Assembly (NCBI GenBank): GCA_046154245.1
Contig: JBJXFZ010000072.1
Location: 3,097-67,096 of the forward strand
Source: Pyrinomonadaceae bacterium
Lineage (GTDB): Bacteria > Acidobacteriota > Blastocatellia > Pyrinomonadales > Pyrinomonadaceae
Length of the DNA: 64,000 nt
Reading direction: 5' to 3'
Shown: piece after piece, positions 6,669-60,036 of the stretch
How the letters are laid out: the number at the start of each line of letters is the position of its first letter
Position numbering within the stretch: the stretch's first letter is position 1
Position numbers and translations under genes: made by a program
Notes under the pieces: generated by a model
Databases searched by the model: none
The model's input: the letters and a program-made list of their open reading frames with translations, nothing else
Told to the model about the DNA's origin: nothing

Positions 6669-9230
6669 CTATCCTTTCTTCGTAGCGCTTTTCTTTGGCC
6701 GTGCCTTTTTCGACGCAGGCTTAGTCTTCTTTGTGAACGCTCCCGGCACTTCGGCCTCGATGATCTTCTTCACCTGTTCCAACGTCAGAGCTGCGGCCTC
6801 GTCCGCCGTAGAGCGTGTGCCGTCGGCCTTTTTGGGGAGATAAATGATCTTTTTGCCGAATTTGATGACGGGGCCCCAACGAGCATTTTCGAGCGATATC
6901 TTTTCGTCTTCCCAGCGTTGTATGTAACGGTTTGCTTCTTTTTCGCGCTTAGCCTCGATAAGTTCGTTCATCTCGGTCTGCGTCAGGTTCGCGAAATCAT
7001 ATCGACGGGGCACGTTGATAAACATACCGTCCCACTTTATGAATGGCCCGAACCGACCCGTTCCCTTTGTGATCGGCTTATTCTCAAACTCACCGACCGG
7101 CGCATCCGCCACCTGTTTAGCCTTGATGAACTCGATCGCTTTTTCCGTATCCACGCTTCCGAGGTCGGTGCCGCGAGGAATTGAGATAAATTCATCTCCC
7201 CATTTTACATACGGCCCGTAACGACCCACGGCTGCAGAGATCTCCTTGCCCTCATAAGTGCCCATTGCGGCCTGCAGCTTGAACAGAGCCATCGCCTCGT
7301 CAAACGTAATGGTCTCGATACTCTGGCCGGTTGGAACTTTTGCAAATTTCGGCTTTTCCTCCTCCGATACGCTGCCGATCTGTATGATCGGGCCATAGCG
7401 AGCCATGCGCGCCGTCACCGGCTTGCCGCTTTCGGGGTCAGTGCCCAACACTCTTTCGCCCTTTACACGCTCGGCGTTTTCGATGGTATTGTCGACGTCT
7501 TTTTTGAAGGGGCCATAAAACTCGTCGATCATCTTATTCCACTTCAGTTTGCCGTCGGCGACATCGTCGAACTCTTTCTCGATCTTGGCTGTAAAGCCAT
7601 AATCCATGATGTCGCCAAAATACTGCTTGAGAAAATCCGTGACCACGAGTCCTAAGTCTGTCGGGAACAATTTTGATTTTTCTGCACCGGTGTTTTCAGA
7701 ATCTTCGCGTTTGCTGATCGAGTCGTCCTTTAAGACCAGTACTCTGAAAGCTCTTGGCGCACCTTCTTTATCTCTTTTTTCAACGTAACCTCGTTTAAGG
7801 ATCGTCGAGATCGTCGGCGCGTATGTTGACGGGCGGCCGATGCCGAGTTCCTCTAATTTTTTGACGAGCGAGGCCTCTGTGTAGCGCGGCTGAGCGCGGC
7901 TGAACCGTTCGGTTGCTCTCAGTTCTGACAGCGGCAATAACTGCCCGACTGTCATAGGCGGCAACAGACTGTCGGACGATTCTTCCTGTTCGTCTTCGTC
8001 CTTATCTTCTCGATAAACTTTCAAAAATCCGTCAAACTTCAACACCTCGCCTGTCGCTGTCAGTTCTTCTTTGTTCGTGGAAATTTCGATTTTGACCGTC
8101 GTTTTCTCGAGTTCGGCCTCGGCCATTTGCGAGGCAATCGTTCGCTTCCAGATCAGTTCGTATAACTTCTGCCACTCTTCGTCTTTAACGGTCGACGCAC
8201 TTGCGTAGGTTGGGCGAATGGCCTCGTGGGCTTCCTGTGCAGATTCGTTTTTGTTTTTGAATTTGCGCGCCTGGTGATATCGATCACCGTACATTTCGCT
8301 GATCGCTTGTTTGATGTCGCTCTGCGCCGTCTCGCTCAGGCTCACGCTGTCGGTTCGCATATAAGTTATGTGACCGTTTTCATACAGCTTCTGAGCGATC
8401 TGCATGGTTCTTGCGACGCCATAGCCGAGCTTTCTTGATGCTTCCTGTTGGAGTGTTGACGTTGTAAATGGCGGGGCCGGAGAACGCTTGCCGGGCTTCA
8501 CCTTTATATCGGTCACCGTGTAGTCAGCACCGATACAACTATTCAAAAACCTTTCGGCGTCTTGGGCACTGTCCTGTTTGCGCCCTTCGCCCTTGAATGT
8601 GACTGCCTTTCCGTCGAGATCATCGGCAATAAACAACCCTTCGATCTTGAAATGGCTTACCGGTTGAAAAGCGTTGATCTCGCGCTCTCTGTCGGCGATA
8701 AGGCGTACTGCGACGCTCTGCACGCGGCCGGCGCTCAAGTTCTTACCGCTGGTGCTGATCTTGCGCCATAACACCGGGCTCAATTCAAAACCGACGATGC
8801 GATCGAGCACGCGACGCGCCTGCTGTGCCATCACCAGATCCATATTGACGGTGCGCGGCCTTTCCACCGCCGCCTCGATCGCGGGCTTGGTGATCTCGTG
8901 AAACACGATCCGCTTTGTCGTTACCGGGTTAAGCCCCAGCACCTCGCACAGATGCCAGCTTATGGCTTCGCCTTCGCGGTCTTCGTCAGTTGCCAACCAA
9001 ACTTCGTCCGATTTCTTTGCCAGCGACTTTAGTTCGTTTACGACCTTTCTTTTCTCTTCAGAAACTATGTAGCGCGGTTCGAAATTATTTTCGATGTCGA
9101 TGCCCATGCCGGCTTTCTCAAGATCGCGGATATGGCCAAAGCAGCTATTTACCTGAAAATCTTTTCCGAGGATCTTTTCGATGGTCTTTGCCTTGGCAGG
9201 GCTTTCGACTATTAACAGGTTTTTTGACAT
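6669..9230 (-). CDS. topA: DNA topoisomerase I
   Basis: The N-terminus MSKNLLIVESPAKAKTIEKILGKDF is a canonical TOPRIM start. C-terminal Cys-less repeats (GRYGPYVKWGDEFISIP, GRFGPFIKWDGMFINVP, ARWGPVIKFGKKIIYLP) are followed by a Lys-rich tail. The track start at 9254 (GTG) adds 8 non-conserved residues, so ATG 9230 is preferred. Confidence 0.95.
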   Translation of the reverse strand: MSKNLLIVESPAKAKTIEKILGKDFQVNSCFGHIRDLEKAGMGIDIENNFEPRYIVSEEKRKVVNELKSLAKKSDEVWLATDEDREGEAISWHLCEVLGLNPVTTKRIVFHEITKPAIEAAVERPRTVNMDLVMAQQARRVLDRIVGFELSPVLWRKISTSGKNLSAGRVQSVAVRLIADREREINAFQPVSHFKIEGLFIADDLDGKAVTFKGEGRKQDSAQDAERFLNSCIGADYTVTDIKVKPGKRSPAPPFTTSTLQQEASRKLGYGVARTMQIAQKLYENGHITYMRTDSVSLSETAQSDIKQAISEMYGDRYHQARKFKNKNESAQEAHEAIRPTYASASTVKDEEWQKLYELIWKRTIASQMAEAELEKTTVKIEISTNKEELTATGEVLKFDGFLKVYREDKDEDEQEESSDSLLPPMTVGQLLPLSELRATERFSRAQPRYTEASLVKKLEELGIGRPSTYAPTISTILKRGYVEKRDKEGAPRAFRVLVLKDDSISKREDSENTGAEKSKLFPTDLGLVVTDFLKQYFGDIMDYGFTAKIEKEFDDVADGKLKWNKMIDEFYGPFKKDVDNTIENAERVKGERVLGTDPESGKPVTARMARYGPIIQIGSVSEEEKPKFAKVPTGQSIETITFDEAMALFKLQAAMGTYEGKEISAAVGRYGPYVKWGDEFISIPRGTDLGSVDTEKAIEFIKAKQVADAPVGEFENKPITKGTGRFGPFIKWDGMFINVPRRYDFANLTQTEMNELIEAKREKEANRYIQRWEDEKISLENARWGPVIKFGKKIIYLPKKADGTRSTADEAAALTLEQVKKIIEAEVPGAFTKKTKPASKKARPKKSATKKG

Positions 9231-9463
9231 ATGCGAAAAAAAATACGCCAGCACTTAATTTTTGTGCTGACGTTTAAGACTTCTAACATTCGGCGTAAGA
9301 GCTTGTCAATAACGAAACACACAAGCCCCCGGTTGGTTATGGCGAACATTGCCAGAGAATATTTACAGCGGATTACGCAGGTACGGCAGAAGAAATGCTT
9401 TTATAAAATCTGCCTTTTCTGCGTCATCTGTGCCTGACCTTGTTTAAAATCTGACAATGCCGG

Positions 9464-10588
9464 TCACATTCGACGAGCATAATTTTTGCCCGGCAGCACG
9501 CGAATTAGATCGCGAATGTCGAGGCTCACAAGCGCGTTGTTAAGATCGCCGAACGACAGACCGCTCGTCTCAAGAAGGATGTCGATATGCGTCGCATCGT
9601 CAGCCGCGAGCAGCGACCAAACCTTGCGTTCTTTGTCATTAAGGTCGGCCGGCGCGAGTTGCTGCTGCCGACGGCTCTCGCGCTTTTCTTCGTCGATCTT
9701 TGGCGGCAAGATCGACGCTGAGATCTCGCTCGGCAACTCGGCGACGACGTCCTGCCACTGCTGGACGAGTTTTGCGCCGCTCTTAATAATGTAATTCGTC
9801 CCGAACGAATTGCCGGATGTGATATTGCCCGGTACGGCCATAACCTCGCGGTTTTGCTCGGTTGCGAGCCGCGCGGTGATCAAACTACCGCTTCGCTCCG
9901 AGGCCTCGACTATCAAAACGCCATAGCTCAAACCGCTGATAATTCTATTGCGATAGGGAAAATTGTCCTTGAGCGGCGGCGTGCCCAGCGGAAACTGCGT
10001 CACAAGACATCCGCCGTTTGCCAGGATCTCGCGCACCAAGCCGTTGTTCTCACGCGGATAAACATTGTCGATGCCGGTACCCATCACGGCTATAGTGCGG
10101 CCCATGCCTTTGACCGCACCCTTGTGCGCCGCCGCGTCGATGCCGCGAGCGAGACCGGAAACGATTGTTATGCCGCGCGACGCCAGATCACGCGAGAGCA
10201 TCTCTGCGGCGTTCTCGCCATACGTCGAACACTGGCGAGAACCGACGACACCAACGCATGGCTGCTCAAAACAGGCCTGCCAATCGCCTTTCACATAAAG
10301 CACCGGAGGCGGATCGTCCGTCTCACGCAGCATCGCTGGATAACTGCCGTCATCGAGTATCAATACGTCGGCGCCGAGCTCCTTTACCCGCTCAAGCTCG
10401 GTAACCGCTCTTGCGTGGAACTCGCGCTTTATGATGCTCTCGGTCGTTTCAGGTTGTAGCCGCAGGGATTCAAGTTCGCCGCGACGGGCGTGAAACACAG
10501 CGTCGGGCGAACCAAAACGCTCAAGTAGCTTTGTGGCAAGACGCGGGCCAACGCCGGGTGTCATATTGAGGGAGATCCAATCAATCAT
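9464..10588 (-). CDS. dprA: DNA-processing protein DprA/Smf
   Basis: 374 aa. Rossmann-like core VGVVGSRQCSTYG...SGLARGIDAAAHKGAV...VEASERSGSLITA. The common dprA-topA gene order is present. Confidence 0.9.
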   Translation of the reverse strand: MIDWISLNMTPGVGPRLATKLLERFGSPDAVFHARRGELESLRLQPETTESIIKREFHARAVTELERVKELGADVLILDDGSYPAMLRETDDPPPVLYVKGDWQACFEQPCVGVVGSRQCSTYGENAAEMLSRDLASRGITIVSGLARGIDAAAHKGAVKGMGRTIAVMGTGIDNVYPRENNGLVREILANGGCLVTQFPLGTPPLKDNFPYRNRIISGLSYGVLIVEASERSGSLITARLATEQNREVMAVPGNITSGNSFGTNYIIKSGAKLVQQWQDVVAELPSEISASILPPKIDEEKRESRRQQQLAPADLNDKERKVWSLLAADDATHIDILLETSGLSFGDLNNALVSLDIRDLIRVLPGKNYARRM

Positions 10589-11015
10589 ATCGATTTGGGA
10601 TATGGGAATTATGATTTCGGATTTCTTTTCGCCTTTGACGTCTTGATAGCCGAAACGACTATCGAGACGATTTCGTCAAATTCGGACAAGAGCATCGCTA
10701 CCAAGTTCTGCTTGATCTGACCGGATTCAACTAACAGTTCTATCCAGTAAATGAATTCGTCCGATTCTTCTTCAACAATCGCCAGCTTATTAATAAAATC
10801 AGCGGTCGATTTGGCGCGACAAGCTGCCCGATAGTTCGCCCCAACTGAAGTGGCGCTGCGAAGCAATTGTCTGCCAAGAATATCTGATGTCTTGTTTTTT
10901 GGCAAGCTTTCGACGAGGCAAATTACACGCACCGATAACTGCTTCGTTCGGTCCATCATCTCCAGCTTTGTCATATGTAAATCCGCAATCCGAAATCACA
11001 AATCACTAATCGAAA
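10589..11015 (-). mobile_element. candidate IVS-like element: four-helix-bundle gene nested between imperfect 36-37 bp inverted repeats built of 7-bp-periodic GGATT/AATCC units
   Basis: Left arm 10589..10624 is ATCGATTTGGGATATGGGAATTATGATTTCGGATTT. Right arm 10979..11015 is AAATCCGCAATCCGAAATCACAAATCACTAATCGAAA. By hand alignment, 27 of 36 positions of the left arm match the reverse complement of the right arm. The arms abut the dprA start codon on one side and the tRNA-Sec 3' end on the other. Confidence 0.5.
10609..10974 (-). CDS. four-helix-bundle protein (23S rRNA intervening-sequence protein / Avd-like family)
   Basis: 121 aa. The family pattern is visible in QLLRSATSVGANYRAACRAKSTADFINKLAIVEEESDEFIYWIELL. 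The ORF termini are encoded by the flanking repeat arms (C-terminal ...KRNPKS*). Confidence 0.8.
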   Translation of the reverse strand: MTKLEMMDRTKQLSVRVICLVESLPKNKTSDILGRQLLRSATSVGANYRAACRAKSTADFINKLAIVEEESDEFIYWIELLVESGQIKQNLVAMLLSEFDEIVSIVVSAIKTSKAKRNPKS

Positions 11016-11115
11016 TGGCGGAGGCGTGTGGGAGTCGAACCCACCCAAGAGACGCTCTCGCGCTCTCGCAAACGGTTTTGAAGACCGCGCCCATCACCGG
11101 ACAGGATGCGCCTCC
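11016..11115 (-). tRNA. selC: tRNA-Sec (anticodon UCA)
   Basis: Minus-strand sequence GGAGGCGCATCCTGTCCGGTGATGGGCGCGGTCTTCAAAACCGTTTGCGAGAGCGCGAGAGCGTCTCTTGGGTGGGTTCGACTCCCACACGCCTCCGCCA. It folds with a 7-bp acceptor stem, a 6-bp D stem (CCTGTC/GATGGG) with the 4-nt loop typical of tRNA-Sec, an anticodon loop CTTCAAA (TCA), a long variable arm, a T arm GTGGG-TTCGACT-CCCAC and an encoded CCA. Confidence 0.85.
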
Positions 11116-11122
11116 TAAAAAA

Positions 11123-11491
11123 TCAATCATTGCTTCGACGTAAAATTATTGCGATTAATAGATAAATGATGGCTGCATTTAACGACGCACTGCTTAAGAT
11201 CCGACCAAGCGATGGCGAGCAAGACTGATCCATATTGTAACAAGGTAATATTAAGCTCCATGGAAGCGTAAGCATCAATGTAACACTTTCAATCACCGGA
11301 TTACTGGACTGTTGGTAAATCAACGCAGTGATTAGAACCAATCCGACATAGGCCATCACAAAATATTCTCCGATCTTGGATTTAAACTTTCGGCGACCAA
11401 ACATCAACACACCGATGCCAACCAAGAAAAGAAAACCGTGAATCAAAAAACTAAAAAATATTCCTTCGCCGTGAAAAAATGCGAAATACAT
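11123..11491 (-). CDS. hypothetical small integral membrane protein
   Basis: 122 aa with about four hydrophobic segments. No family was recognised. Confidence 0.5.
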   Translation of the reverse strand: MYFAFFHGEGIFFSFLIHGFLFLVGIGVLMFGRRKFKSKIGEYFVMAYVGLVLITALIYQQSSNPVIESVTLMLTLPWSLILPCYNMDQSCSPSLGRILSSASLNAAIIYLLIAIILRRSND

Positions 11492-11517
11492 TTGAAAACC
11501 TCCATTCGCCTAACTGC

Positions 11518-12657
11518 CTAATTTTCCTGCAGCAATATCGTCGCCAACGTCACCCGCTTTGCAATGTCACTCACCAAAATATGCTCGTCGAGCGTGTGGG
11601 CACCGCTACCCCGGATGCCGAGGCCATCAAGAACCGGCACGCCAAGAGCCGCGACAAAGTTGCCGTCCGACGCGCCGCCGACCTGCGTTTCGCCAAGTTC
11701 GTAATCGAATGTTGCCGCGATGTCGCGGGCCTTTTTATACAGAGCGACGACCGCATCTGTTCGCTCCATCGGCGGGCGGTTTATCTCGCCTAAGAGTTCG
11801 AGCGTGACGCGGGCATCGATCGCCCCTAAAGAACGTAATTCGCTCTCGACACGTGCGGCCTCATCCGCACTGCTAAATCTTACGTCGATCTCACACGCGG
11901 CGTGATCGGGAATTACGTTTGTGGTAGTGCCGCCGTGAAATGTTGTGACATTTACGGTCGTGCCAACATCGGGGCGCTGGATCGCGTGAACACGCTCCAC
12001 GGCGCGAGCGAGTTCGGCGACTGCGTTCGCGCCTTTCTCCGGTTCGAGACCCGCGTGTGCGGGAGCGCCGTGAGCGACGAGCTTGAATGTGCCTGTGCCT
12101 TTGCGGCCCGTTTTCACGCGTCCGTCGGCCGAGGGCTCGAAAACAAGACATCGCTCGGCGTTTGCAGCCTCGCGCTCGACAAGCGGCCGCCCCGAATGGC
12201 TGCCGACCTCTTCGTCACAGGCGAGCAGGATCGTGATCGGCCGCGATGGCTTTCGCCCGGTCGCGGCAAGAAACCGCAGCGCCTCGATCATCAGGACAAT
12301 GCCCGATTTCATATCAAAAATGCCGCACCCGTAGTATTTATCGCCCTCGACGCGCGTCGGATTTTTCTCACGGGTTCCGACCGGGTGAACAGTGTCCGTA
12401 TGGCCGAGCAGTAAAATGTGTGGACCGTCGCCGGAGAAGGCATTGATAATAATGTGCTCGCCGTATCCGTCGACCGTGACGCGCTCGATCTCAACATTGA
12501 CGCCCGTCGCACGAAACGCTCGCTCTATCCAATCGACGACCGCGACGCTTTGCTCCGAGTCGTTAGACGGAGACTCGATCTCAACGATGTCTCTGATCGA
12601 AGCGATGATCTCGTCGCGACGGCCGTCGTAATATTTGAGAATTTCTGTGGGTGTCAT
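11518..12657 (-). CDS. M20 family metallopeptidase (carboxypeptidase G2 / ArgE-DapE-like)
   Basis: 379 aa. Metal-binding motifs LLLGHTDTVHP, GCGIFDMKSG and ACDEEVGS. Confidence 0.8.
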   Translation of the reverse strand: MTPTEILKYYDGRRDEIIASIRDIVEIESPSNDSEQSVAVVDWIERAFRATGVNVEIERVTVDGYGEHIIINAFSGDGPHILLLGHTDTVHPVGTREKNPTRVEGDKYYGCGIFDMKSGIVLMIEALRFLAATGRKPSRPITILLACDEEVGSHSGRPLVEREAANAERCLVFEPSADGRVKTGRKGTGTFKLVAHGAPAHAGLEPEKGANAVAELARAVERVHAIQRPDVGTTVNVTTFHGGTTTNVIPDHAACEIDVRFSSADEAARVESELRSLGAIDARVTLELLGEINRPPMERTDAVVALYKKARDIAATFDYELGETQVGGASDGNFVAALGVPVLDGLGIRGSGAHTLDEHILVSDIAKRVTLATILLQEN

Positions 12658-14350: not shown

Positions 14351-14402
14351 CTGTGGCGATTCATAATAATCCTCAATTATACCTACCTAAATTAGACCTA
14401 CC

Positions 14403-23047: not shown

Positions 23048-24277
23048 TCATATCCTCAGCGGCATGACGATGTATTTGTAGTCGTAGATGCTCTCGCCGG
23101 CGATGGACATTTGGGTTTGGGCGTTGGGGTCCTTGAATTCGAAGGCAATGCGAACCGGTGCGGCGGATTCGCGTGCCGGTGCCGTTGCGGCGGCCGTCTT
23201 GTCCGTTTTTTTACCGTCGCCCACTCGCTCACTCGCTCCCTCGCTCGCTCCGTCGCTCACGGCCTCGGCGGCGATCATCTCGGCGGAACCGACATTTGTC
23301 AGAAATTCGAGCAGGTATTGCCAGTTAAAGCCTAGCTGCACTTCCTCGCCCTTGTAATCGGCCTGGACGACCTCGTTGCCCTCACCCTGCTCGCTCGACT
23401 GGGCCGAGATCTCGACCTCGCCCTCGCGAACTGTGAGCCGAATAGAGCGGTTTCGCTCGTCGGCGATCAGAGCCATGCGGCGAACCGCGTTTCGCATCTC
23501 GTCTAGGTCAAAGGTTGCAACACGATCGTTGTCCTTTGGCATGACCATCTCGTAATTTGGGAACTGCCCGGTTAGCTTTCGCGTGATCAGCAGCCGCCCC
23601 TCGGTCTCGAAATAGATGTGGTTAGTGTCCTCGCCAAACGCTACATCGCCGGCCCCGCGAGAGAGTTTGACGAGCTCCATCAACGCCTTTTTCGGGATCA
23701 GCGTGTCCATCACGGCATCCTTGTCATCGATCGCACGCTCGACATACGCGAGGCGGTGGCCGTCGGTCGTGACCATTTTTGCAGTGCCGTCGCCGACGAT
23801 GAATTTGGCTCCCGAGAGTGTAAATCGCGACTGTTCGTTTGTGATCGCAAACACTGTGTTGCGGATAAAAAAGCCGAATATCTCGGCCGAGAGCTTCATC
23901 GGCGTCGACTTGAACTGCGGAATCTCGGGAAACTGGTCGCGGCTGACGCCGGCGAGGCGGTAATTTGCGCGGCCCGCCTTCATCGTCACCCAGTCGTTAT
24001 CCTCTTTTTTGAAATGCACGTCGCCCGGAGCGAGCACGCGAGCGATGTCAAACAGCTTTCGCGCCTGTACGCACATCGACCCCGGCGAGATGATCTCGGC
24101 CTCGGCGTCGCAGCGGATCGTGCAATCGAGATCTGTGCCGACGATGCGGATCTCGTTTTCGCCAATCGACTCGATCAGTATGTTTGAAAGCACCGGTATC
24201 GTCGTCTTTCGCTCAACGACGCCCTGAATAAAGCCCAATTCCTCTTTGAGAATGCTCTGATTAATTTTGAATTCCAT
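23048..24277 (-). CDS. dnaN: DNA polymerase III beta sliding clamp
   Basis: 409 aa. The N-terminus is MEFKINQSILKEELGFIQGVVERKTTIPVLSNILIE and the C-terminus is YIVMPLRI. It lies downstream of dnaA. Confidence 0.95.
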   Translation of the reverse strand: MEFKINQSILKEELGFIQGVVERKTTIPVLSNILIESIGENEIRIVGTDLDCTIRCDAEAEIISPGSMCVQARKLFDIARVLAPGDVHFKKEDNDWVTMKAGRANYRLAGVSRDQFPEIPQFKSTPMKLSAEIFGFFIRNTVFAITNEQSRFTLSGAKFIVGDGTAKMVTTDGHRLAYVERAIDDKDAVMDTLIPKKALMELVKLSRGAGDVAFGEDTNHIYFETEGRLLITRKLTGQFPNYEMVMPKDNDRVATFDLDEMRNAVRRMALIADERNRSIRLTVREGEVEISAQSSEQGEGNEVVQADYKGEEVQLGFNWQYLLEFLTNVGSAEMIAAEAVSDGASEGASERVGDGKKTDKTAAATAPARESAAPVRIAFEFKDPNAQTQMSIAGESIYDYKYIVMPLRI

Positions 24278-35496: not shown

Positions 35497-35561
35497 AAAC
35501 AGGATGGGCAGGATAGACAGGATTCAATTTTTCTATCCTGTTCATCCTGTATATCCTGTTT
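35497..35561. repeat. CAGGAT-nonamer palindrome, copy A (ORF-less)
   Basis: AAACAGGAT-GGG-CAGGAT-AGA-CAGGAT ..11 nt.. ATCCTG-TTC-ATCCTG-TAT-ATCCTGTTT. It fills the jag-mnmE gap. Confidence 0.85.
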
Positions 35562-35566
35562 AAATC

Positions 35567-36949
35567 ATGCCTCAAACGATTGTCGCACTAGCAACACCCA
35601 CGGGCCGCAGCGGTATCGGCGTCGTGCGTCTGAGCGGCCAAGGTGCGTTGCGAATTACACAGTCGATAACCGCGGGCAGTTTTTCACCACGACCGCGTAC
35701 CGCACATTTAAGGCAGCTTGTAGATACAACATCGGGCGAGGTGATCGACGAGGCGCTTATCACCTATTTCAAGGCGCCTCATTCTTTCACCGGCGAGGAC
35801 GTAATAGAAATCAGCTGTCACGGCTCGCCGGTTTTGTTGCGACAAATCATCGACCTTTGTCTCGCCACGGGCGCTCGAATGGCGGAGGCAGGAGAGTTCT
35901 CTCTTCGCGCGCTCGCGAACGGCCAAATCAATCTCGCCGAGGCCGAGGCGATCCGCGATCTCATCGACGCGCAGACAACTGCGTCGGCGCGCCAGGCCGT
36001 GCGCCAAATGAGCGGCGAATTTTCACGTCAGTTGCAGCCGCTAAAAGATGAACTCCTGAATGTTATCGTCGTGCTCGAATCGGCGCTTGAGTTTGTCGAA
36101 GACGATCTGCCTGCGACGCAGGTTGAACGTTTGAGAACAAGCTTGACTGACATTGCCTGCGATGTCGCGAAACTCGCCGACACGTTTCGCGCCGGACACT
36201 TGATACGCGATGGCTTGCGTGTGGCGATCGTCGGCCGTCCGAATGTCGGTAAATCTAGCCTTTTCAATGCGTTGCTTGGCAGCGAACGAGCGATCGTAAC
36301 GGAAATCGCCGGCACGACCCGCGATCATCTTCACGAACGATTTACGATTCATAACATTCCGATCTCACTGATAGACACCGCCGGTTTGCGTGATACGACA
36401 GACATGGTCGAGAGCATCGGCGTCGCGCGCTCGCGGAGCTTGATGTCTGACGCCGACATTGTCGTCGTGATGCTTGACGTTAATGAGGAGATAACAGATG
36501 AAGATCAAGCGATCATCGAATCCGTCCGTGACATAACGCATCTATTCGCGTTGAACAAAATCGATAAGCTTCAAAACCGCGAGGATGACAGAGAGGTTTT
36601 GGAGCAAGTGAAATCCGCAATTGGCAATCCGCGATCCGCAATCGTATCGACTTCTGCAAAAACGGGCGAAGGCCTTGACGAGCTAAAACGCGCGATCATC
36701 GCACCATTCTCGGCCGACGATGTTAATACGTCGGGGTTCCTCGTAACCGACGCGCGTCACCACGACTTGCTCGTGCGAGCAAAAACCGAGATCGAAAACT
36801 CGATGGAGAATCTCGACCGAGAAATGAGCGAGGAGATCGTGCTCATTGGTCTGCACAACGCACTCCGCTACTTGGGCGAGATCACCGGCGAGACGACGAC
36901 CGAAGACATGCTGACACGAATATTCTCGACCTTTTGCATTGGCAAATAG
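35567..36949 (+). CDS. mnmE: tRNA modification GTPase MnmE
   Basis: 460 aa. G1 [15 protein letters not shown]3 DTAGLR, G4 NKID, C-terminal FCIGK. Confidence 0.95.
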
Positions 36950-54319: not shown

Positions 54320-54393
54320 TTCAAACAGGATAGGCAGGATGAGCAGGATAATTGCTTTTCTCTATCCTGTCGATCCTGTGCATCCTGTTTGAA
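54320..54393. repeat. CAGGAT-nonamer palindrome, copy B (ORF-less)
   Basis: TTCAAACAGGAT-AGG-CAGGAT-GAG-CAGGAT ..14 nt.. ATCCTG-TCG-ATCCTG-TGC-ATCCTGTTTGAA. Confidence 0.85.
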
Positions 54394-54401
54394 TTTCTAA
54401 C

Positions 54402-55925
54402 ATGAAACGCGCTCCGCTACTTTTTCTCAACGTCTTTGTCATCGCAACCTGCGGGCTCATCTACGAGCTGCTCGCTGCAACTCTCTCGTCCTATGTGCTT
54501 GGCGACAGCGTCACGCAGTTCTCACTCATCATCGGGATCTATCTTTTTGCGATGGGTGTCGGCTCGTATCTGTCAAAGTTTATCGACAAGAATGTCGCCG
54601 AGAAATTTATTGAGATCGAACTGGGGGTTGCGGTGATCGGGGGTTTTTCAGCCCCGCTTCTGTTCTTTGCGTTTGCGCACCTCACGTACTTCGCTCTCGT
54701 CTTATATGGCATAGTTTTTATCATCGGAACACTCGTTGGCCTCGAGATACCGTTGCTAATGCGTATCCTAAAAGATGAGCTCGACTTTAAAGATCTGGTT
54801 TCTCGCGTTCTCGCATTCGATTACATCGGCGCCCTGGCCGCATCACTGCTGTTCCCGATCTTTCTAGTGCCACGCCTCGGCCTTAACCGGACATCACTGC
54901 TTTTTGGCATGCTAAACGCAGCCGTCGGCATCTGGGCGACGTGGCTTTTGCTGCCGCTGCTAAAACGAAATGTGACATTGATGCGTGTAAAAGGCGCGGT
55001 GATTCTCGTGCTGCTCGCCATCGCGTTCATCAAGGCCGATCGCCTAACGACGCTCGCCGAGGACGCGCTGTTTGTCGATAACATCATTTATGCAAAAAGC
55101 TCGCCGTATCAACGCATCGTCGTCACAAAGGGCAAAACCGGCTACTCGCTTTTCCTGAACGGCAATCTGCAGTTCAACTCATTCGACGAATACCGTTATC
55201 ACGAGGCGCTCGTTCACCCCGCATTTGCGGCATTTAACGGCGAGCCGAAACGCGTGCTCGTGCTCGGCGGCGGCGACGGCCTCGCGGTTCGCGAAGTTTT
55301 GAAATACAAGTCAGTCGAACATGTCCAACTCGTCGATCTCGACCCCGAGATGACAAAAGTCTCGTCGTCGGTCCCCGCGCTGGGTGAACTGAATAACTAT
55401 GCACTCGACGACCCGCGCGTATCGATAACAAACACTGACGCATATGTTTGGCTCGACGACACGCAAACCGAGCCATTCGACATCGCGATCGTCGACTTTC
55501 CCGACCCGAACAATTTCGCTCTCGGCAAACTTTATACGACGCGTTTCTATAATTTGCTAAAAGCAAAACTCAGACCGGACTCATCCGTGGTGATCCAAAC
55601 AACATCACCGCTAATCGCCCGCAACTCGTTTTGGTGTGTTATGAAAACGCTTGAGGCGAGCGGCTACACGGTCAAACCGTTTCAAACAACGGTTCCGAGC
55701 TTTGGCGTTTGGGGTTTTGCCCTTGCGAAAACACAACCGTTCGAAACACCAGTTAAGCCGCGCGAGAACGTCGAATTGAAGTTTCTAAACAACGAGACCT
55801 TCGCGTCGATGTTCGAGTTTCCATCCGACACATCAAAACCGGCTGAAGAACTCGAGATCAACCGCCTCGACAACCAGGCGCTTGTCCGATACTACGAGAG
55901 CGAATGGCGGCGGTTTGAGCAGTGA
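54402..55925 (+). CDS. membrane-bound polyamine aminopropyltransferase (spermidine synthase-like)
   Basis: 507 aa. About 7 N-terminal TM segments, then an aminopropyltransferase domain (YHEALVHP, VLVLGGGDGLAVREVLKY, VDLDPEM, IVDFPDP). Confidence 0.8.
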   Translation: MKRAPLLFLNVFVIATCGLIYELLAATLSSYVLGDSVTQFSLIIGIYLFAMGVGSYLSKFIDKNVAEKFIEIELGVAVIGGFSAPLLFFAFAHLTYFALVLYGIVFIIGTLVGLEIPLLMRILKDELDFKDLVSRVLAFDYIGALAASLLFPIFLVPRLGLNRTSLLFGMLNAAVGIWATWLLLPLLKRNVTLMRVKGAVILVLLAIAFIKADRLTTLAEDALFVDNIIYAKSSPYQRIVVTKGKTGYSLFLNGNLQFNSFDEYRYHEALVHPAFAAFNGEPKRVLVLGGGDGLAVREVLKYKSVEHVQLVDLDPEMTKVSSSVPALGELNNYALDDPRVSITNTDAYVWLDDTQTEPFDIAIVDFPDPNNFALGKLYTTRFYNLLKAKLRPDSSVVIQTTSPLIARNSFWCVMKTLEASGYTVKPFQTTVPSFGVWGFALAKTQPFETPVKPRENVELKFLNNETFASMFEFPSDTSKPAEELEINRLDNQALVRYYESEWRRFEQ

Positions 55926-55935
55926 TAACAAATTA

Positions 55936-56327
55936 TTCAAACAGGATAGACAGGATAAAAAGGATGAAACATGAGGAACTGACATCACAAATAGGCGCTG
56001 GGTTCTTGGAGTCTGTTTACGAGAAAGCGCTGATCGTAGCATTTTCACAGCGAGGTTTGAATGTTAAGTCGCAAGTTGCACTGCAAGTGAATTTCCGTGG
56101 AGTAATCGTGGGAGATTTTTATGCAGATTTGATCATCGAAGAAAAGGTTTTGATCGAAATCAAGGCAGTTAGCAAAATTTCTCAGAACCATAAGGCTCAA
56201 ATAATCAACTGTCTCAATGCGACGGGTTTTGAAGTTGGTCCGCTCGTAAATTCTGGCACGGCCCGTATTGAGTATTTCAGATTTCATCCAAGCGACCATC
56301 CTGAACATCCTGTCAATCCTGTTTGAA
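55936..56327 (+). mobile_element. CAGGAT-nonamer palindrome, copy C, carrying a GxxExxY gene (candidate IVS-like element)
   Basis: The left arm 55936-55965 is TTCAAACAGGAT-AGA-CAGGAT-AAA-AAGGAT. The right arm 56298-56327 is ATCCTG-AAC-ATCCTG-TCA-ATCCTGTTTGAA. Confidence 0.6.
55964..56326 (+). CDS. GxxExxY protein (PD-(D/E)XK nuclease fold, PDDEXK_3-like)
   Basis: MKHEELTSQIGAGFLESVYEKAL... carries GFLESVY. The nuclease-like signature is ADLIIEEKVLIEIKAV. The start is created by the arm hexamer AAGGATG, and the stop lies in CCTGTTTGA of the right arm. Confidence 0.75.
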   Translation: MKHEELTSQIGAGFLESVYEKALIVAFSQRGLNVKSQVALQVNFRGVIVGDFYADLIIEEKVLIEIKAVSKISQNHKAQIINCLNATGFEVGPLVNSGTARIEYFRFHPSDHPEHPVNPV

Positions 56328-56334
56328 TAAATCC

Positions 56335-57945
56335 GTGAAACTTACTCGCCGCGAAATTTTAACCACATTCCTGGGCGCTCCGATCGCTCTCGCGGCGTGT
56401 CGCGATGTTTCAACGCGCCGGTTTCCCGATGGTGAGATCGTTGGACAGAATGTCGAGCTTGGTCACATCTTACGTGAGCGTCGAACCTTCGATGTTCCGC
56501 CCGGTAATTGGGAAACCAAAAAGGTCGCGATCATCGGCGGCGGCATCGCGGGTTTGACGGCCGCATGGAAATTTAAGAAAGAGAACTTCAATGATTTTGT
56601 TTTGCTTGAATTGGAACGCGAGATCGGCGGCACGTCAGCGAGTAGTCCGGGTCAGCCGGTGGGCTATCCGTGGGGAGCGCACTATCTGCCCGTTCCGTTT
56701 AAGGAGAACACTGAGCTTATAGAGCTACTTAGCGAAATGTCGCTCGTCGAAGGCCGCGATGATAGCGGCGAGTTGATCGTTAAAGAACAGTTTCTCTGCC
56801 GCGAGCCTGAGGAACGTGTCTATTACAAAGGCCGCTGGTACGAAGGTCTTTATCTGCACGTTGGCGAGAGCGAAGAGGACAAGCGACAGTTTGCCGAGTT
56901 TCAAAAGAAGATCGACTATTGGGTCAACTGGCGTGACGCGCTCGGGCAACGGGCGTTTATTGTTCCGGTTGCAAATTGCTCGACCGACACCGACGTCACG
57001 CAGCTTGACAAGATCACATTCGCAGATTGGCTCGCACAAAGCGGATTTACGAGCGAGCGGCTTATCTGGTATTGCGATTACGCGTGCCGCGACGACTACG
57101 GTTTGAAGCTCGATCAAACATCCGCGTGGGCCGGACTGTTTTATTTTTGTTCACGCGTTCGAAGGTCAGGCGCTGAGTCGCAGCCGTTCATTACTGTTCC
57201 TGAGGGCAATGGCCAGTTTGTAAATCATTTTTTTGAGAAGGTGAAAGACCGCGTGCGCCGATCGCAGATGGTCGTGTCAGTCGTACCGACGGCGAATGGC
57301 GTTGACGTTATTTGTCTTGATGGCGGCGAGTTACGCGGCATTCGTTGCGAACGCGCGATCTTTGCGTCGCCGATGTTTACGGCGCCGCATGTAATTCGTG
57401 GCTTTTCGGCGGATGCTCCGTTTGCAGCCACAGAATTTCACCACAACGCGTGGTTTGTCGCGAACTTATTTTTGAAAGACAGGCCCAAGCCACGCTTTGC
57501 AAAAGATTTTCCGCTTGCGTGGGACAATGTTTTATGCGAAAGCCCGTCGCTTGGCTACGTAACCGCGACGCATCAAAAGGGCATCGACTACGGCCCGACG
57601 ATTTTGACCTACTATTATCCGATGTGTCATGAGCCGAACGGCAGAACAAAGCTGTTTGATTATGACTGGCGGCAGCTTGCTGACGTTTGCCTCACCGATC
57701 TGTCGCGAGCTCACACGGACATTTACGAACTGACGACGCGAATCGATATTATTCGTTGGGGCCACGCGATGATCAGCCCGCGTCCAAATTTTATATGGAG
57801 CGGCGTGCGCGAAAAGGCGATGAAACCATATCGGAACATTCACTTCGCGCACACAGACCTGAGCGGCATCGCATTGTTCGAAGAGGCGTTTTATCATGGC
57901 CTTCGTGCTGCAGGCCAAGTAATAAAAGAAATTCAGACAGGATGA
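56335..57945 (+). CDS. Tat-exported FAD-dependent (amine-oxidase-like) oxidoreductase
   Basis: Twin-arginine signal KLTRREILTTFLGAPIALAAC. Dinucleotide fold VAIIGGGIAGLTAAW. The start could be GTG 56335 or TTG 56323 (the track's choice), which lies inside the palindrome arm. Confidence 0.75.
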   Translation: MKLTRREILTTFLGAPIALAACRDVSTRRFPDGEIVGQNVELGHILRERRTFDVPPGNWETKKVAIIGGGIAGLTAAWKFKKENFNDFVLLELEREIGGTSASSPGQPVGYPWGAHYLPVPFKENTELIELLSEMSLVEGRDDSGELIVKEQFLCREPEERVYYKGRWYEGLYLHVGESEEDKRQFAEFQKKIDYWVNWRDALGQRAFIVPVANCSTDTDVTQLDKITFADWLAQSGFTSERLIWYCDYACRDDYGLKLDQTSAWAGLFYFCSRVRRSGAESQPFITVPEGNGQFVNHFFEKVKDRVRRSQMVVSVVPTANGVDVICLDGGELRGIRCERAIFASPMFTAPHVIRGFSADAPFAATEFHHNAWFVANLFLKDRPKPRFAKDFPLAWDNVLCESPSLGYVTATHQKGIDYGPTILTYYYPMCHEPNGRTKLFDYDWRQLADVCLTDLSRAHTDIYELTTRIDIIRWGHAMISPRPNFIWSGVREKAMKPYRNIHFAHTDLSGIALFEEAFYHGLRAAGQVIKEIQTG

Positions 57946-57998
57946 AGAGGATACGCAGGATTGTTTGTATCCTGCTAATCCTGTCTATCCTGTTTGAA
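57932..57998. repeat. CAGGAT-nonamer palindrome, copy D (ORF-less)
   Basis: TTCAGACAGGAT-GAA-GAGGAT-ACG-CAGGAT-TGTTTGT-ATCCTG-CTA-ATCCTG-TCT-ATCCTGTTTGAA. The left arm contains the stop codon of the oxidoreductase gene. Confidence 0.85.
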
Positions 57999-59121: not shown

Positions 59122-60036
59122 TCACTTACCGTCCGGGTCATCTCCGGTTTCGAAAAAGAACCCACTACCCTTTGATTTCTCCGGCGTCACGGTGATGGTT
59201 TGACGGTTGCCGTTGCGGATAATCGTGAGCGTCACGTCGCCTTCCTTTTTCTCACTGATCGAACGAATAAGGTCCATCTCGCGCTTTACGGTTTTGCCTT
59301 CGCACTCGGTGATGATATCGCCCGCTTTTAGACCGGCCTTCGCGGCTGGCGAATTTTCCCGCACGTCGTTTATCATCACGCCGCTCTCTACGCCGTAATG
59401 CGAGGCGAGCTTTTTGGTCAGCGGCGTAACACCGACGCCGATAACGCGGCCGTCACCAGATCTCCAAATAAGGGTTTCGCCCTCGCCGCCCGGAACGGTG
59501 AATACACGCGGCAATTCGCCGCGCGGAAATTCTTTGAATTCAGGCATCGACGGCATAGGCGGCATAGGCGGCATCGGCGTGCGAAGCAGAAAGTTGCCGT
59601 CAGCAAATTTCGGCTCCGGCCGTTTTCCTAACGTTGCCGTGACGTCTTGCTCGCGGCCGTTGCGCGAGATCGTGATCGTTGCATGATGATCAGGTGCGAC
59701 CTCACTGATGAGCCGCGTCAGCTTTCGGGTACTCGTGATTTCCTCGCCGTTGAAACGCACGATCACGTCCCCGGCCTTCAAACCCGCCGCGGCCGCGGGC
59801 GAATTTTCCACAACCTTTTCCACAGCAACTCCGCGAACGCTGGAGAGTCCGAACTTCGAAAAATTCTCTCGTGTGACTTCCTGCGTCTGCACGCCGAGAT
59901 AGCCGCCATCGCCGTCAAACGAAAAAGCAAACGAGCGTGTACGCTCCTTTTCTTTGGGCGCCTCAGGCGTCTGTCCGATCGCAATTACGAGCGATGATGT
60001 GACGATGAGAATCGAACTGAGTAAATTTCTGAACAT
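59122..60036 (-). CDS. secreted tandem-PDZ domain protein
   Basis: Start trimmed to ATG 60036 (GGAGG SD). Signal peptide present. Two PDZ-like units (SPAAAAGLKAGDVIVRFNGEEI and SPAAKAGLKAGDIITECEGKTV) are joined by a PMPPMPPMPSMP linker. Confidence 0.75.
   Translation of the reverse strand: MFRNLLSSILIVTSSLVIAIGQTPEAPKEKERTRSFAFSFDGDGGYLGVQTQEVTRENFSKFGLSSVRGVAVEKVVENSPAAAAGLKAGDVIVRFNGEEITSTRKLTRLISEVAPDHHATITISRNGREQDVTATLGKRPEPKFADGNFLLRTPMPPMPPMPSMPEFKEFPRGELPRVFTVPGGEGETLIWRSGDGRVIGVGVTPLTKKLASHYGVESGVMINDVRENSPAAKAGLKAGDIITECEGKTVKREMDLIRSISEKKEGDVTLTIIRNGNRQTITVTPEKSKGSGFFFETGDDPDGK

Follow-up and report, generated by a model that had tools for sequence, protein, structure and literature searches.

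The junction between tRNA-Sec and dprA in a 64,000-nucleotide (nt) stretch of Pyrinomonadaceae bacterium DNA (contig JBJXFZ010000072.1 of assembly GCA_046154245.1; the whole stretch is hereafter the window) is occupied by a cassette of the type found as intervening sequences (IVSs) in ribosomal RNA (rRNA), here located outside rRNA at the junction of a tRNA and an mRNA. The cassette consists of a gene for a small four-helix-bundle (4HB) protein enclosed by inverted arrays of heptamers, and the order on the minus strand is an M20 peptidase gene, a DUF7942-like open reading frame (ORF), tRNA-Sec, 5' arm, 4HB gene, 3' arm, dprA and topA (Table 1). The initial annotation had described the element as IVS-like, and its size, 4HB ORF, terminal stem and heptamers match those of the 23S rRNA IVS of Coxiella burnetii (PMC4990558). 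We conclude with considerable confidence that the element is an accessory cassette of the IVS type and that it is exchanged as one unit. The whole picture, in which a widespread accessory cassette with IVS architecture is represented outside rRNA by this copy, is favored more cautiously.

The initial annotation was largely right on the nature of the element, and its interpretation is partly supported. The heptamers it listed for the left and right arms match the sequence exactly, with TCGATTT GGGATAT GGGAATT ATGATTT CGGATTT as the five units at 10590-10624 of the forward strand, and the element fills the tRNA-Sec/dprA space as described, leaving 427 nt between the encoded CCA and the dprA ATG. 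A single nt separates the tRNA-Sec 3' end from the upstream arm. The downstream arm, which encodes the last four codons of the 4HB gene (N-P-K-S) and the stop, ends 1 nt before the dprA ATG. The proposal that both ORF termini are encoded in the arms holds for the C-terminus and stop and fails for the start codon (10972-10974), which lies 5 nt inside the loop and outside the arm. The stop codon (TAA, 10609-10611) falls 6-8 codons earlier than in relatives, in which the protein has 127-129 residues. A repeat search recovered the inverted arms as 10586-10624 and 10979-11017, each 39 nt long, 77% complementary and 354 nt apart, and Tandem Repeats Finder reported a period of 7 at 10979-11011. The pattern GATTN3GATTN3GATT with at most one mismatch occurred six times in the 64 kb against 0.65 expected, a count reached by none of 100 shuffled sequences, and four of the six matches fall in the cassette arms. 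In a predicted fold of the 441-nt RNA the arms pair in both the minimum free energy and centroid structures (-130.9 kcal/mol, z -2.6). The stem of the window copy is the weakest of the family, with 27 of 35 positions paired and a duplex energy of -25 kcal/mol versus a family mean of -36. Comparison of the window with Rfam, at both the gathering and an E-value threshold, detected only tRNA-Sec, and no second 4HB gene was found with phmmer or the family HMM in any window ORF or in approximately 700 kb of related loci.

The GGATT heptamer pattern is not dispersed in the window, where it was found only in this element and inside mnmE. The latter is a tandem array of AATCCGC (4.6 copies, 36612-36643) within the ORF taken as mnmE/trmE (35567-36949); its unit is of the same kind as that of the cassette 3' arm, and it has no inverted partner. 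Further short-period arrays in the window are GGCATAGGC (4.1 copies, 59543-59579), TCGCTCAC (4.2 copies, 23217-23258) and CCTAAATTAGACCTA (2.1 copies, 14371-14402).

The identity of the encoded protein was established by profile and structure comparisons. The 121-residue product of the window ORF matched PF05635 with 67.4 bits (cut-off 33.8; 1.5e-18) and TIGR02436 with 87.8 bits (cut-off 24; 5e-25). The AlphaFold2 model is composed of four helices (mean confidence score, pLDDT, 90.7) with template modeling (TM) scores of 0.84-0.90 to 2RLD, approximately 0.8 to 2GSC (Xcc0516) and approximately 0.7 to Avd, the accessory protein of diversity-generating retroelements (DGRs); phmmer comparison with 2RLD gave 8e-19. 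The closest homologues, 66-97% identical, are encoded in metagenome-assembled genomes (MAGs) of Pyrinomonadaceae (Acidobacteriota). The TIGR02436/PF05635 family is abundant, approximately 8000 of 8000 scored candidates passing 1e-5, and we know of no function for its members outside DGRs. Nonsynonymous divergence (dN) among intact copies was 0.09-0.3 with synonymous divergence (dS) saturated, and dN/dS was at most 0.1 where computable. The low dN/dS shows, as judged from the coding sequences, that the 4HB protein is under purifying selection and hence functional.

The junction was compared among relatives by a DprA scan of species-representative genomes, which yielded 80 loci (designated by L numbers) with DprA 75-93% identical to that of the window; here and below, most of the sequences compared are MAGs or metagenomic contigs, and arms were detected by simple scoring. 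Three of the MAGs with these closest homologues carry the 4HB gene at the identical place, in the order M20, tRNA-Sec, 4HB, dprA and topA, with heptamer arms on both sides of the gene. Translation of their 3' arm adds a tail (..NPKSQIPNPKS) to the C-terminus, which represents (AATCCNA)n read in three frames, and the stop codon overlaps the dprA ATG. The initial annotation had regarded a junction identical in all relatives as evidence against its interpretation; the spacer was found to be highly variable among the 80. Sequence of the 4HB gene was present in 22, approximately 15 copies being intact and approximately 7 frameshifted or truncated (L018, L042, L053, L057, L073, L080 and L081). At one junction (L071) the arms remain with only the first ~45 nt of the ORF, at another (L026) the arms surround unrelated sequence, and two (L074 and L083) contain hairpins built from other heptamers (AAAAGTA and TTTGCGA) without a gene. 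A single unpaired array of 4-5 heptamers was found at 28 of the 80 junctions, belonging to three unrelated types (AGTGAAT, CAGTGGT/CAGTTGT and AAGGATA), and in seven only 6-19 nt lie between the tRNA-Sec CCA and the dprA ATG. One junction (L040; contig CAVTYF010000001.1, 3114-4000) has received an 887-nt insertion encoding a MazE/AbrB-type antitoxin and a PIN-domain toxin. Since this unrelated module occupies the same place, the tRNA-Sec/dprA junction is a general hotspot for small accessory cassettes.

Each type of solo array has a conserved pattern of its own and occurs at scattered positions on the dprA tree; these arrays may be remnants of other cassettes or landing pads. A clade of seven loci (L020, L024, L027, L028, L037, L062 and L068) has no tRNA-Sec between M20 and dprA, the M20 stop codon lying ~20 nt from the dprA ATG, and in L063 the tRNA-Sec is truncated at the 3' end, which suggests that the selenocysteine trait was lost in some lineages. 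Other short-period hairpins or arrays were noted ~110 nt upstream of tRNA-Sec in 13 loci (L017, L058, L079, L033, L036, L043, L046, L006, L032, L048, L010, L011 and L050) and elsewhere in L003 (5557-5617) and L069 (592-797). Such repeats abound in the intergenic DNA of Pyrinomonadaceae; besides hairpins of the AATTGTT and GGATT nonamer types there are GGTCCTATA 9-mers, small hairpins of the form AACCACC...GGTGGTT, a hairpin downstream of dprA (GTGAGTG/CATTCAC) and a GGAAT-type pair of 7.7 and 13 units.

At the junction, arms with the GGATT core were found only together with the 4HB gene or its remnants, and all relatives with the 4HB gene have homologous arms. The cassettes fall into two classes. 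In class A the arms are of the type [G/C]GGATTT and the 4HB protein is 66-84% identical to that of the window; class B combines TTGGATT/TTAGATT arms with a protein 50-64% identical. The 4HB proteins of the two classes are as distant from one another as from the plasmid-encoded proteins of Planktothrix (61-62%), Chlorohelix and Gloeocapsa. The states of the junction are scattered on the DprA neighbor-joining tree and sister taxa differ. For example, L009 and L010 both encode DprA 93% identical to that of the window, and L009 has a 46-nt solo array at the junction while L010 has a class B cassette with a 4HB protein only 55% identical to the window protein. So scattered a distribution is not that of vertical co-inheritance with dprA; the cassette is an accessory one that is exchanged or replaced. 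These comparisons show the cassette to be dispensable. Among close relatives it was acquired, gave way to a second lineage, decayed or disappeared. They also show that gene and arms form one unit in both inheritance and exchange.

In every junction cassette the arms have 4-5 units each and preserve both the GATT core and their complementarity. The stems of relatives are 25-32 bp long with energies down to -50 kcal/mol, including near-perfect stems of 28-32 bp in L023, L081 and L069. Calculated duplex energies were -35.7 kcal/mol for cognate arms, -30.4 kcal/mol for non-cognate arms and -12.3 kcal/mol for shuffled arms, and the preference for cognate pairing was significant in permutation tests overall (P<5e-5) and within class A (P=0.005). 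Since dS is saturated, neutral DNA would have been randomized, yet the arms have kept core, units and complementarity. The combined comparisons of coding and arm sequences show that the cassette is under selection in both protein and arms.

Table 1. Coordinates in the window of the cassette and neighboring features.
Feature	Position	Strand	Basis
tRNA-Sec, anticodon TCA, encoded CCA	11016-11115	minus	ARAGORN; Rfam RF01852, 67.3 bits
Upstream (5') arm, coding strand TCGATTA GTGATTT GTGATTT CGGATTG CGGATTT; G/T-rich, GATT core	10980-11014	minus	
4HB gene, 121 aa, PF05635/TIGR02436	10609-10974	minus	HMM match, AlphaFold2 model
Downstream (3') arm, coding strand AAATCCG AAATCAT AATTCCC ATATCCC AAATCGA	10590-10624	minus	
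Whole cassette, 427 nt, from tRNA-Sec CCA to dprA ATG	10589-11015	minus	
dprA, 374 aa, ATG at 10586-10588, directly downstream of cassette	9464-10588	minus	
topA, downstream of dprA, same orientation	6669-9254	minus	
M20 peptidase gene	11518-12657	minus	
DUF7942-like ORF	11123-11491	minus	

The generality of the arrangement was evaluated with two further samples, one obtained by tblastn against plasmids, which detected 4HB genes in cyanobacteria, Chloroflexota, Bacteroidota and Spirochaetota and from which eight loci were inspected, and the other comprised of 80 diverse 4HB loci from metagenomes, 71 with usable flanks. All eight plasmid loci have co-oriented neighbors and inverted tandem arrays of ~7 nt, for example (AATTCGC)4 ... 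(GCGAATT)4 in Nostoc punctiforme, and the heptamers of the Chlorohelix and Gloeocapsa plasmids are the class B units TTTAGAT/TTGGATT. In the metagenomic loci the best autocorrelation lag was 7 for 48 of 71 upstream and 51 of 71 downstream flanks, and 8 for a further 11 and 12, respectively; in controls a best lag of 7 was found for 6 of 112 distal windows and 1 of 71 windows interior to the ORF. The elements have a median length of 460 nt (interquartile range 435-493) and a median arm of 32 nt. The G/T-rich (GATT) arm was upstream in 28 of 29 scorable loci, and both flanking genes were co-oriented with the 4HB gene in 27 of 41 loci and both opposite in none. The more identical two proteins are, the more similar are their arms as measured on 6-mers (Mantel r=0.23, 0 of 2000 permutations). 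These results show that, as far as flanking sequences can reveal it, period-7 inverted arrays are a near-universal hallmark of 4HB genes. The initial annotation had counted other 4HB genes of the genome devoid of comparable flanking repeats as evidence against its reading; as judged in other genomes, the 71 metagenomic and eight plasmid loci are flanked. No paper was found stating that period-7 inverted arrays generally bracket 4HB genes, within an incomplete coverage of the literature.

The plasmid copies reside between or beside DISARM drmD and BREX pglX, DUF1156 and Swt1-HEPN genes (two loci), RND adaptor and permease genes, KAS III and M20 genes, and upstream of cas1. The arrangement of DUF1156, 4HB cassette and Swt1-family HEPN gene recurs on plasmids of two phyla (L090, Chlorohelix NZ_CP128402.1; L091, Gloeocapsa NC_019759.1), the Planktothrix cassette lies between drmD and pglX, and the Pseudanabaena cassette is just upstream of cas1. 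Thus, defense operons seem to be frequent hosts of 4HB cassettes. A tRNA is adjacent in only 2 of 88 other 4HB loci, the usual site being the spacer between co-oriented genes, which rules out tRNA 3' ends as the general target and with it that part of the initial interpretation. The absence of stop codons from the 3' arm was considered as a cause of the arm orientation and is a weak explanation; stop-free arms were nearly as frequent on the 5' side (20 of 51) as on the 3' side (25 of 51) of the metagenomic loci, and in Pyrinomonadaceae the numbers were 8 of 22 for the 3' arm and 1 of 22 for the 5' arm.

The IVS of C. burnetii 23S rRNA is 428 nt long with an S23p (4HB) ORF and a 28-bp terminal stem that is cut by RNase III, and strain-variable tandem heptamers (GACAGAT, 2-3 copies) are located in its 5' part at the cleavage site (PMC4990558). 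The cassette resembles the ORF-bearing 23S IVSs of Coxiella burnetii, Leptospira, Xanthomonas and Brucella in its length of ~430 nt, one PF05635 ORF in the loop of a terminal stem, residence inside a host transcript with no promoter of its own, patchy distribution and decay of the ORF in some copies. It differs in location. The IVSs are in helix 25 or 45 of the rRNA, whereas the cassette lies between tRNA-Sec and dprA and is therefore not an rRNA IVS proper; excision would separate cistrons rather than fragment rRNA, and the RNase III step is proposed here by analogy. The Coxiella S23p also seems to be untranslated, whereas the cassette ORF is under purifying selection and is placed for coupling to the next gene.

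Heptamer arrays are also known as families of simple sequence repeats. Those of Xanthomonas (GGGAATC) comprise 186 arrays, 70 in inverted pairs and typically of four units, and those of Nostoc have the unit GGGGA(T/C)T (Rehm et al. 2015, PMC4692102). These operon-spacer repeats were discussed as possible G-quadruplexes, with no function and no link to 4HB genes (PMC4692102). Repeat #15 in supplementary file 2 of the same study (PMC4692102) is a Xanthomonas GGGAATC array with a -17 overlap at the XCC0516 start codon; the authors left this overlap without comment, and the S23/IVS family is not mentioned in their main text. This array links the genome-wide Xanthomonas heptamers to a 4HB gene, the product of which is PDB 2GSC. 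The heptamer families share with the cassette arms the period of 7, a G-rich unit of the G-G-A-T-T type, approximately four units per array, and intergenic location as solo arrays or inverted pairs; the cassette arrays differ in that they bracket a gene, contain many units with GG or no G-run, and are not dispersed in the window. The short tandemly repeated repetitive (STRR) sequences of cyanobacteria are likewise heptamer repeats. A link between 4HB heptamer hairpins and dispersed heptamer repeats is probable. G-quadruplex formation was rejected as an explanation of the arms, as most relatives are without GGG runs and units such as TTGGATT have GG only.

The window also contains elements of similar design with a period of 9 bp, as had been noted initially. 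Arms with CAGGAT cores (55942-55965 and 56298-56321) enclose a GxxExxY gene (TIGR04256, PD-(D/E)XK-like), the product of which is a candidate nuclease. The start ATG of this element (55939-56321) lies in the last 5' unit, the 3' arm encodes the C-terminus HPEHPVNPV and the stop, and the element exactly fills the gap between a 507-residue ORF (54402-55925) and the next ORF (start at 56323). Three hairpins without a gene (35500-35558, 54326-54387 and 57938-57992) have arms of three 9-nt units with the CAGGAT core. Four copies in 64 kb suggest a dispersed family with one gene-bearing member. No relatives were found in viral contigs scanned with the GxxExxY protein, and a literature search of incomplete coverage found no paper on the flanking architecture of GxxExxY genes.

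Similarity to other known systems is more limited. REPtrons, formed by repetitive extragenic palindromes (REPs) and their associated tyrosine transposases (RAYTs), and MITEs (miniature transposable elements with inverted repeats) are also characterized by a small gene between short inverted repeats and by hairpins without a gene, a relationship that in the window is clear for the CAGGAT and GxxExxY elements. The 4HB cassette differs from REPtrons in that its gene encodes a 4HB protein and not a Y1 transposase, its arms are internally periodic and no target-site duplication was found. Judged as a transposable element or MITE, it has inverted repeats, one copy in 64 kb and no transposase. That close relatives hold different sequences at a single site speaks for mobility or exchange. 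The 4HB protein shares the fold of Avd (TM ~0.7 to 4DWL and 8UB7, ~12% identity), which forms a pentameric assembly and, as a feature of DGRs, binds RNA within the reverse transcriptase (RT) complex. The element was rejected as an Avd component of a DGR, since there is no RT among the cassette neighbors (tRNA-Sec, DUF7942, M20, dprA and topA) and a repeat search of 10500-11150 found no long direct repeat resembling the template and variable repeats (TR/VR).

The arrangement suggests a mechanism of expression. The cassette, with no promoter of its own, would be transcribed by read-through from the M20/DUF7942/tRNA-Sec side into dprA-topA. Co-transcription of the cassette with its neighbors is likely, since the element contains no promoter-like sites and the neighbors are co-oriented, and since the 6-19 nt at this position in cassette-free relatives are too few to hold a promoter. 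When 9200-11700 was scanned for sigma-70 and terminator consensus sequences, no match exceeded those in shuffled sequences and none fell in the spacers. The shared transcription of tRNA-Sec, the 4HB gene, dprA and topA proposed by the initial annotation is thus supported by inference. In the transcript the arms would pair into a stem of 25-35 bp, and RNase III may cut this stem by analogy with the IVSs of Coxiella and Leptospira. Since the stem starts 1-3 nt after the CCA, such cleavage would be needed to free the 3' end of tRNA-Sec; it would also set free the 3' trailer and a stem-capped 4HB mRNA, and would define where the dprA-topA mRNA begins. Ribosomes on the 4HB gene would continue across the 3' arm and terminate on or beside the dprA ATG, thereby opening the stem and coupling dprA translation to that of the 4HB gene by termination and reinitiation. 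The 4HB stop overlaps the dprA ATG (ATGA) in 8 of 19 scorable loci and is at most 28 nt away in the others. RNase III cleavage and translational coupling are tentative proposals, possible rather than probable.

Several observations weigh against the view of an exchanged cassette that functions through an RNA stem. The stem of the window copy is degraded, with 8 mismatches in 35, and the ORF ends 20 nt before dprA, so cleavage and coupling may both be weak in this copy. Cognate arms of class B pair no better than non-cognate arms (P=0.17), the arms of this class being nearly uniform. Mismatches in the arms comprise 12 G.U and 13 A.C pairs and 46 of the transversion type, with no RNA-specific signature; lacking an excess of G.U, these data do not distinguish selection on pairing in RNA from that in DNA. 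The solo arrays of unrelated sequence at the same site fall outside the account. The phylogenies are neighbor-joining trees on MAG data. Apart from a self-complementary TCGA that is part of the arms, the element showed no candidate for a target-site duplication, and neither a recombinase nor an insertion footprint was detected; homologous recombination via the conserved tRNA-Sec and dprA flanks alone could explain the turnover.

The absence of a G.U bias would equally fit arms that act in DNA, as terminal inverted repeats or as single-stranded DNA (ssDNA) hairpins of a cassette mobilized in trans, the RNA stem being incidental. Such a cassette would be comparable to MITEs, IS200/IS605 ends, REP/RAYT and attC sites. 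The hairpins without a gene and internally deleted remnants (L026, L071, L074 and L083) resemble non-autonomous derivatives, gene-less CAGGAT hairpins are dispersed in the window beside one gene-bearing copy, the cassette has been exchanged across phyla together with its arms, and the Xanthomonas arrays described above include many inverted pairs. Action of the arms in DNA is nevertheless judged unlikely. Neither a transposase nor a recombinase is encoded in the cassette, no catalytic activity is known for the 4HB fold, the search for a target-site duplication was negative, and GGATT-type arrays are not dispersed in the window. The bias in arm orientation (G/T-rich upstream, 28:1) and the co-oriented neighbors also indicate dependence on transcription, although the orientation could stem from common descent or replication-strand effects. 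An improbable alternative is that the arrays are binding sites of the 4HB protein itself. Like TRAP or HutP, a homopentameric ring would engage approximately five tandem 7-nt units, in RNA or ssDNA, and would serve in autoregulation or in the protection or marking of the cassette; solo arrays across the genome would be further targets. The crystals of the homologues 2RLD and 2GSC and of Avd (4DWL) hold five chains, and the Xanthomonas 4HB protein is cited as a homopentamer (PMC4990558). Arrays of 4-5 units recur in 5' arms, 3' arms and unrelated solo arrays, the core is kept across phyla despite saturated dS, and the GGGAATC array overlaps the start codon for XCC0516, the crystallized 4HB protein. 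The heptamer sequence also co-diverges with the protein, which is equally expected from co-inheritance. Two further points weigh against this reading. The number of units differs in other taxa, being 3-4 in Coxiella, ~8 in Planktothrix and as many as 14-26 in Xanthomonas and Nostoc. The heptamers of solo arrays at the junction are unlike those of any 4HB cassette found in these genomes.

The location next to dprA raises the further explanation that the 4HB protein is a vertically inherited partner of DprA, a regulator or accessory factor, with the arms as operator or regulatory sites. The same site in many Pyrinomonadaceae, the purifying selection and the overlap of the stop codon with the dprA start are consistent with such a role. 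It is largely refuted by the distribution, since most close relatives lack the gene and its occurrence on the dprA tree is scattered, and is further opposed by the two divergent lineages at one site and by cassettes of the same type in unrelated operons of other phyla (DISARM/BREX, RND efflux, DUF1156-HEPN and cas1), all of which make a dedicated DprA partner highly improbable. Finally, the modest complementarity of the window copy (77%), and nothing else, would allow the inverted repeat and periodicity to be a chance product of an AT-rich spacer. The enrichment of the pattern, the arms in all orthologous cassettes and the recurrence in 79 independent loci refute this explanation, to which almost no credence is given.

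Identification of the element as an IVS-type cassette joins three observations, the IVSs of rRNA, the orphan 4HB genes in operons and the heptamer simple sequence repeats. IVSs and heptamer repeat families are puzzles of several decades' standing. The broader result, of more interest than the single element, is that hairpins of heptamer arrays mark an orphan 4HB family. A more speculative view, doubtful as it stands, is that free-standing TIGR02436 genes, which make up one of the largest bacterial orphan families, are the core of pan-bacterial hairpin cassettes whose arrays of about five heptamers are specifically bound by a pentameric ring and which spread via transcription units; the ORF-bearing rRNA IVSs would be members, and the dispersed heptamer families of Xanthomonas and Nostoc (including STRR sequences), together with the solo arrays at the tRNA-Sec/dprA junction, would be gene-less derivatives or targets. 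Excision by RNase III from mRNA and tRNA precursors and the binding of a pentameric ring to five heptamers are both testable ideas. The tRNA-Sec/dprA junction offers a natural experiment in which a single family presents the cassette in two lineages, decayed, as bare hairpins, as solo arrays and absent. For annotation, the small 'four helix bundle protein' genes wedged in operons are explained as accessory insertions.

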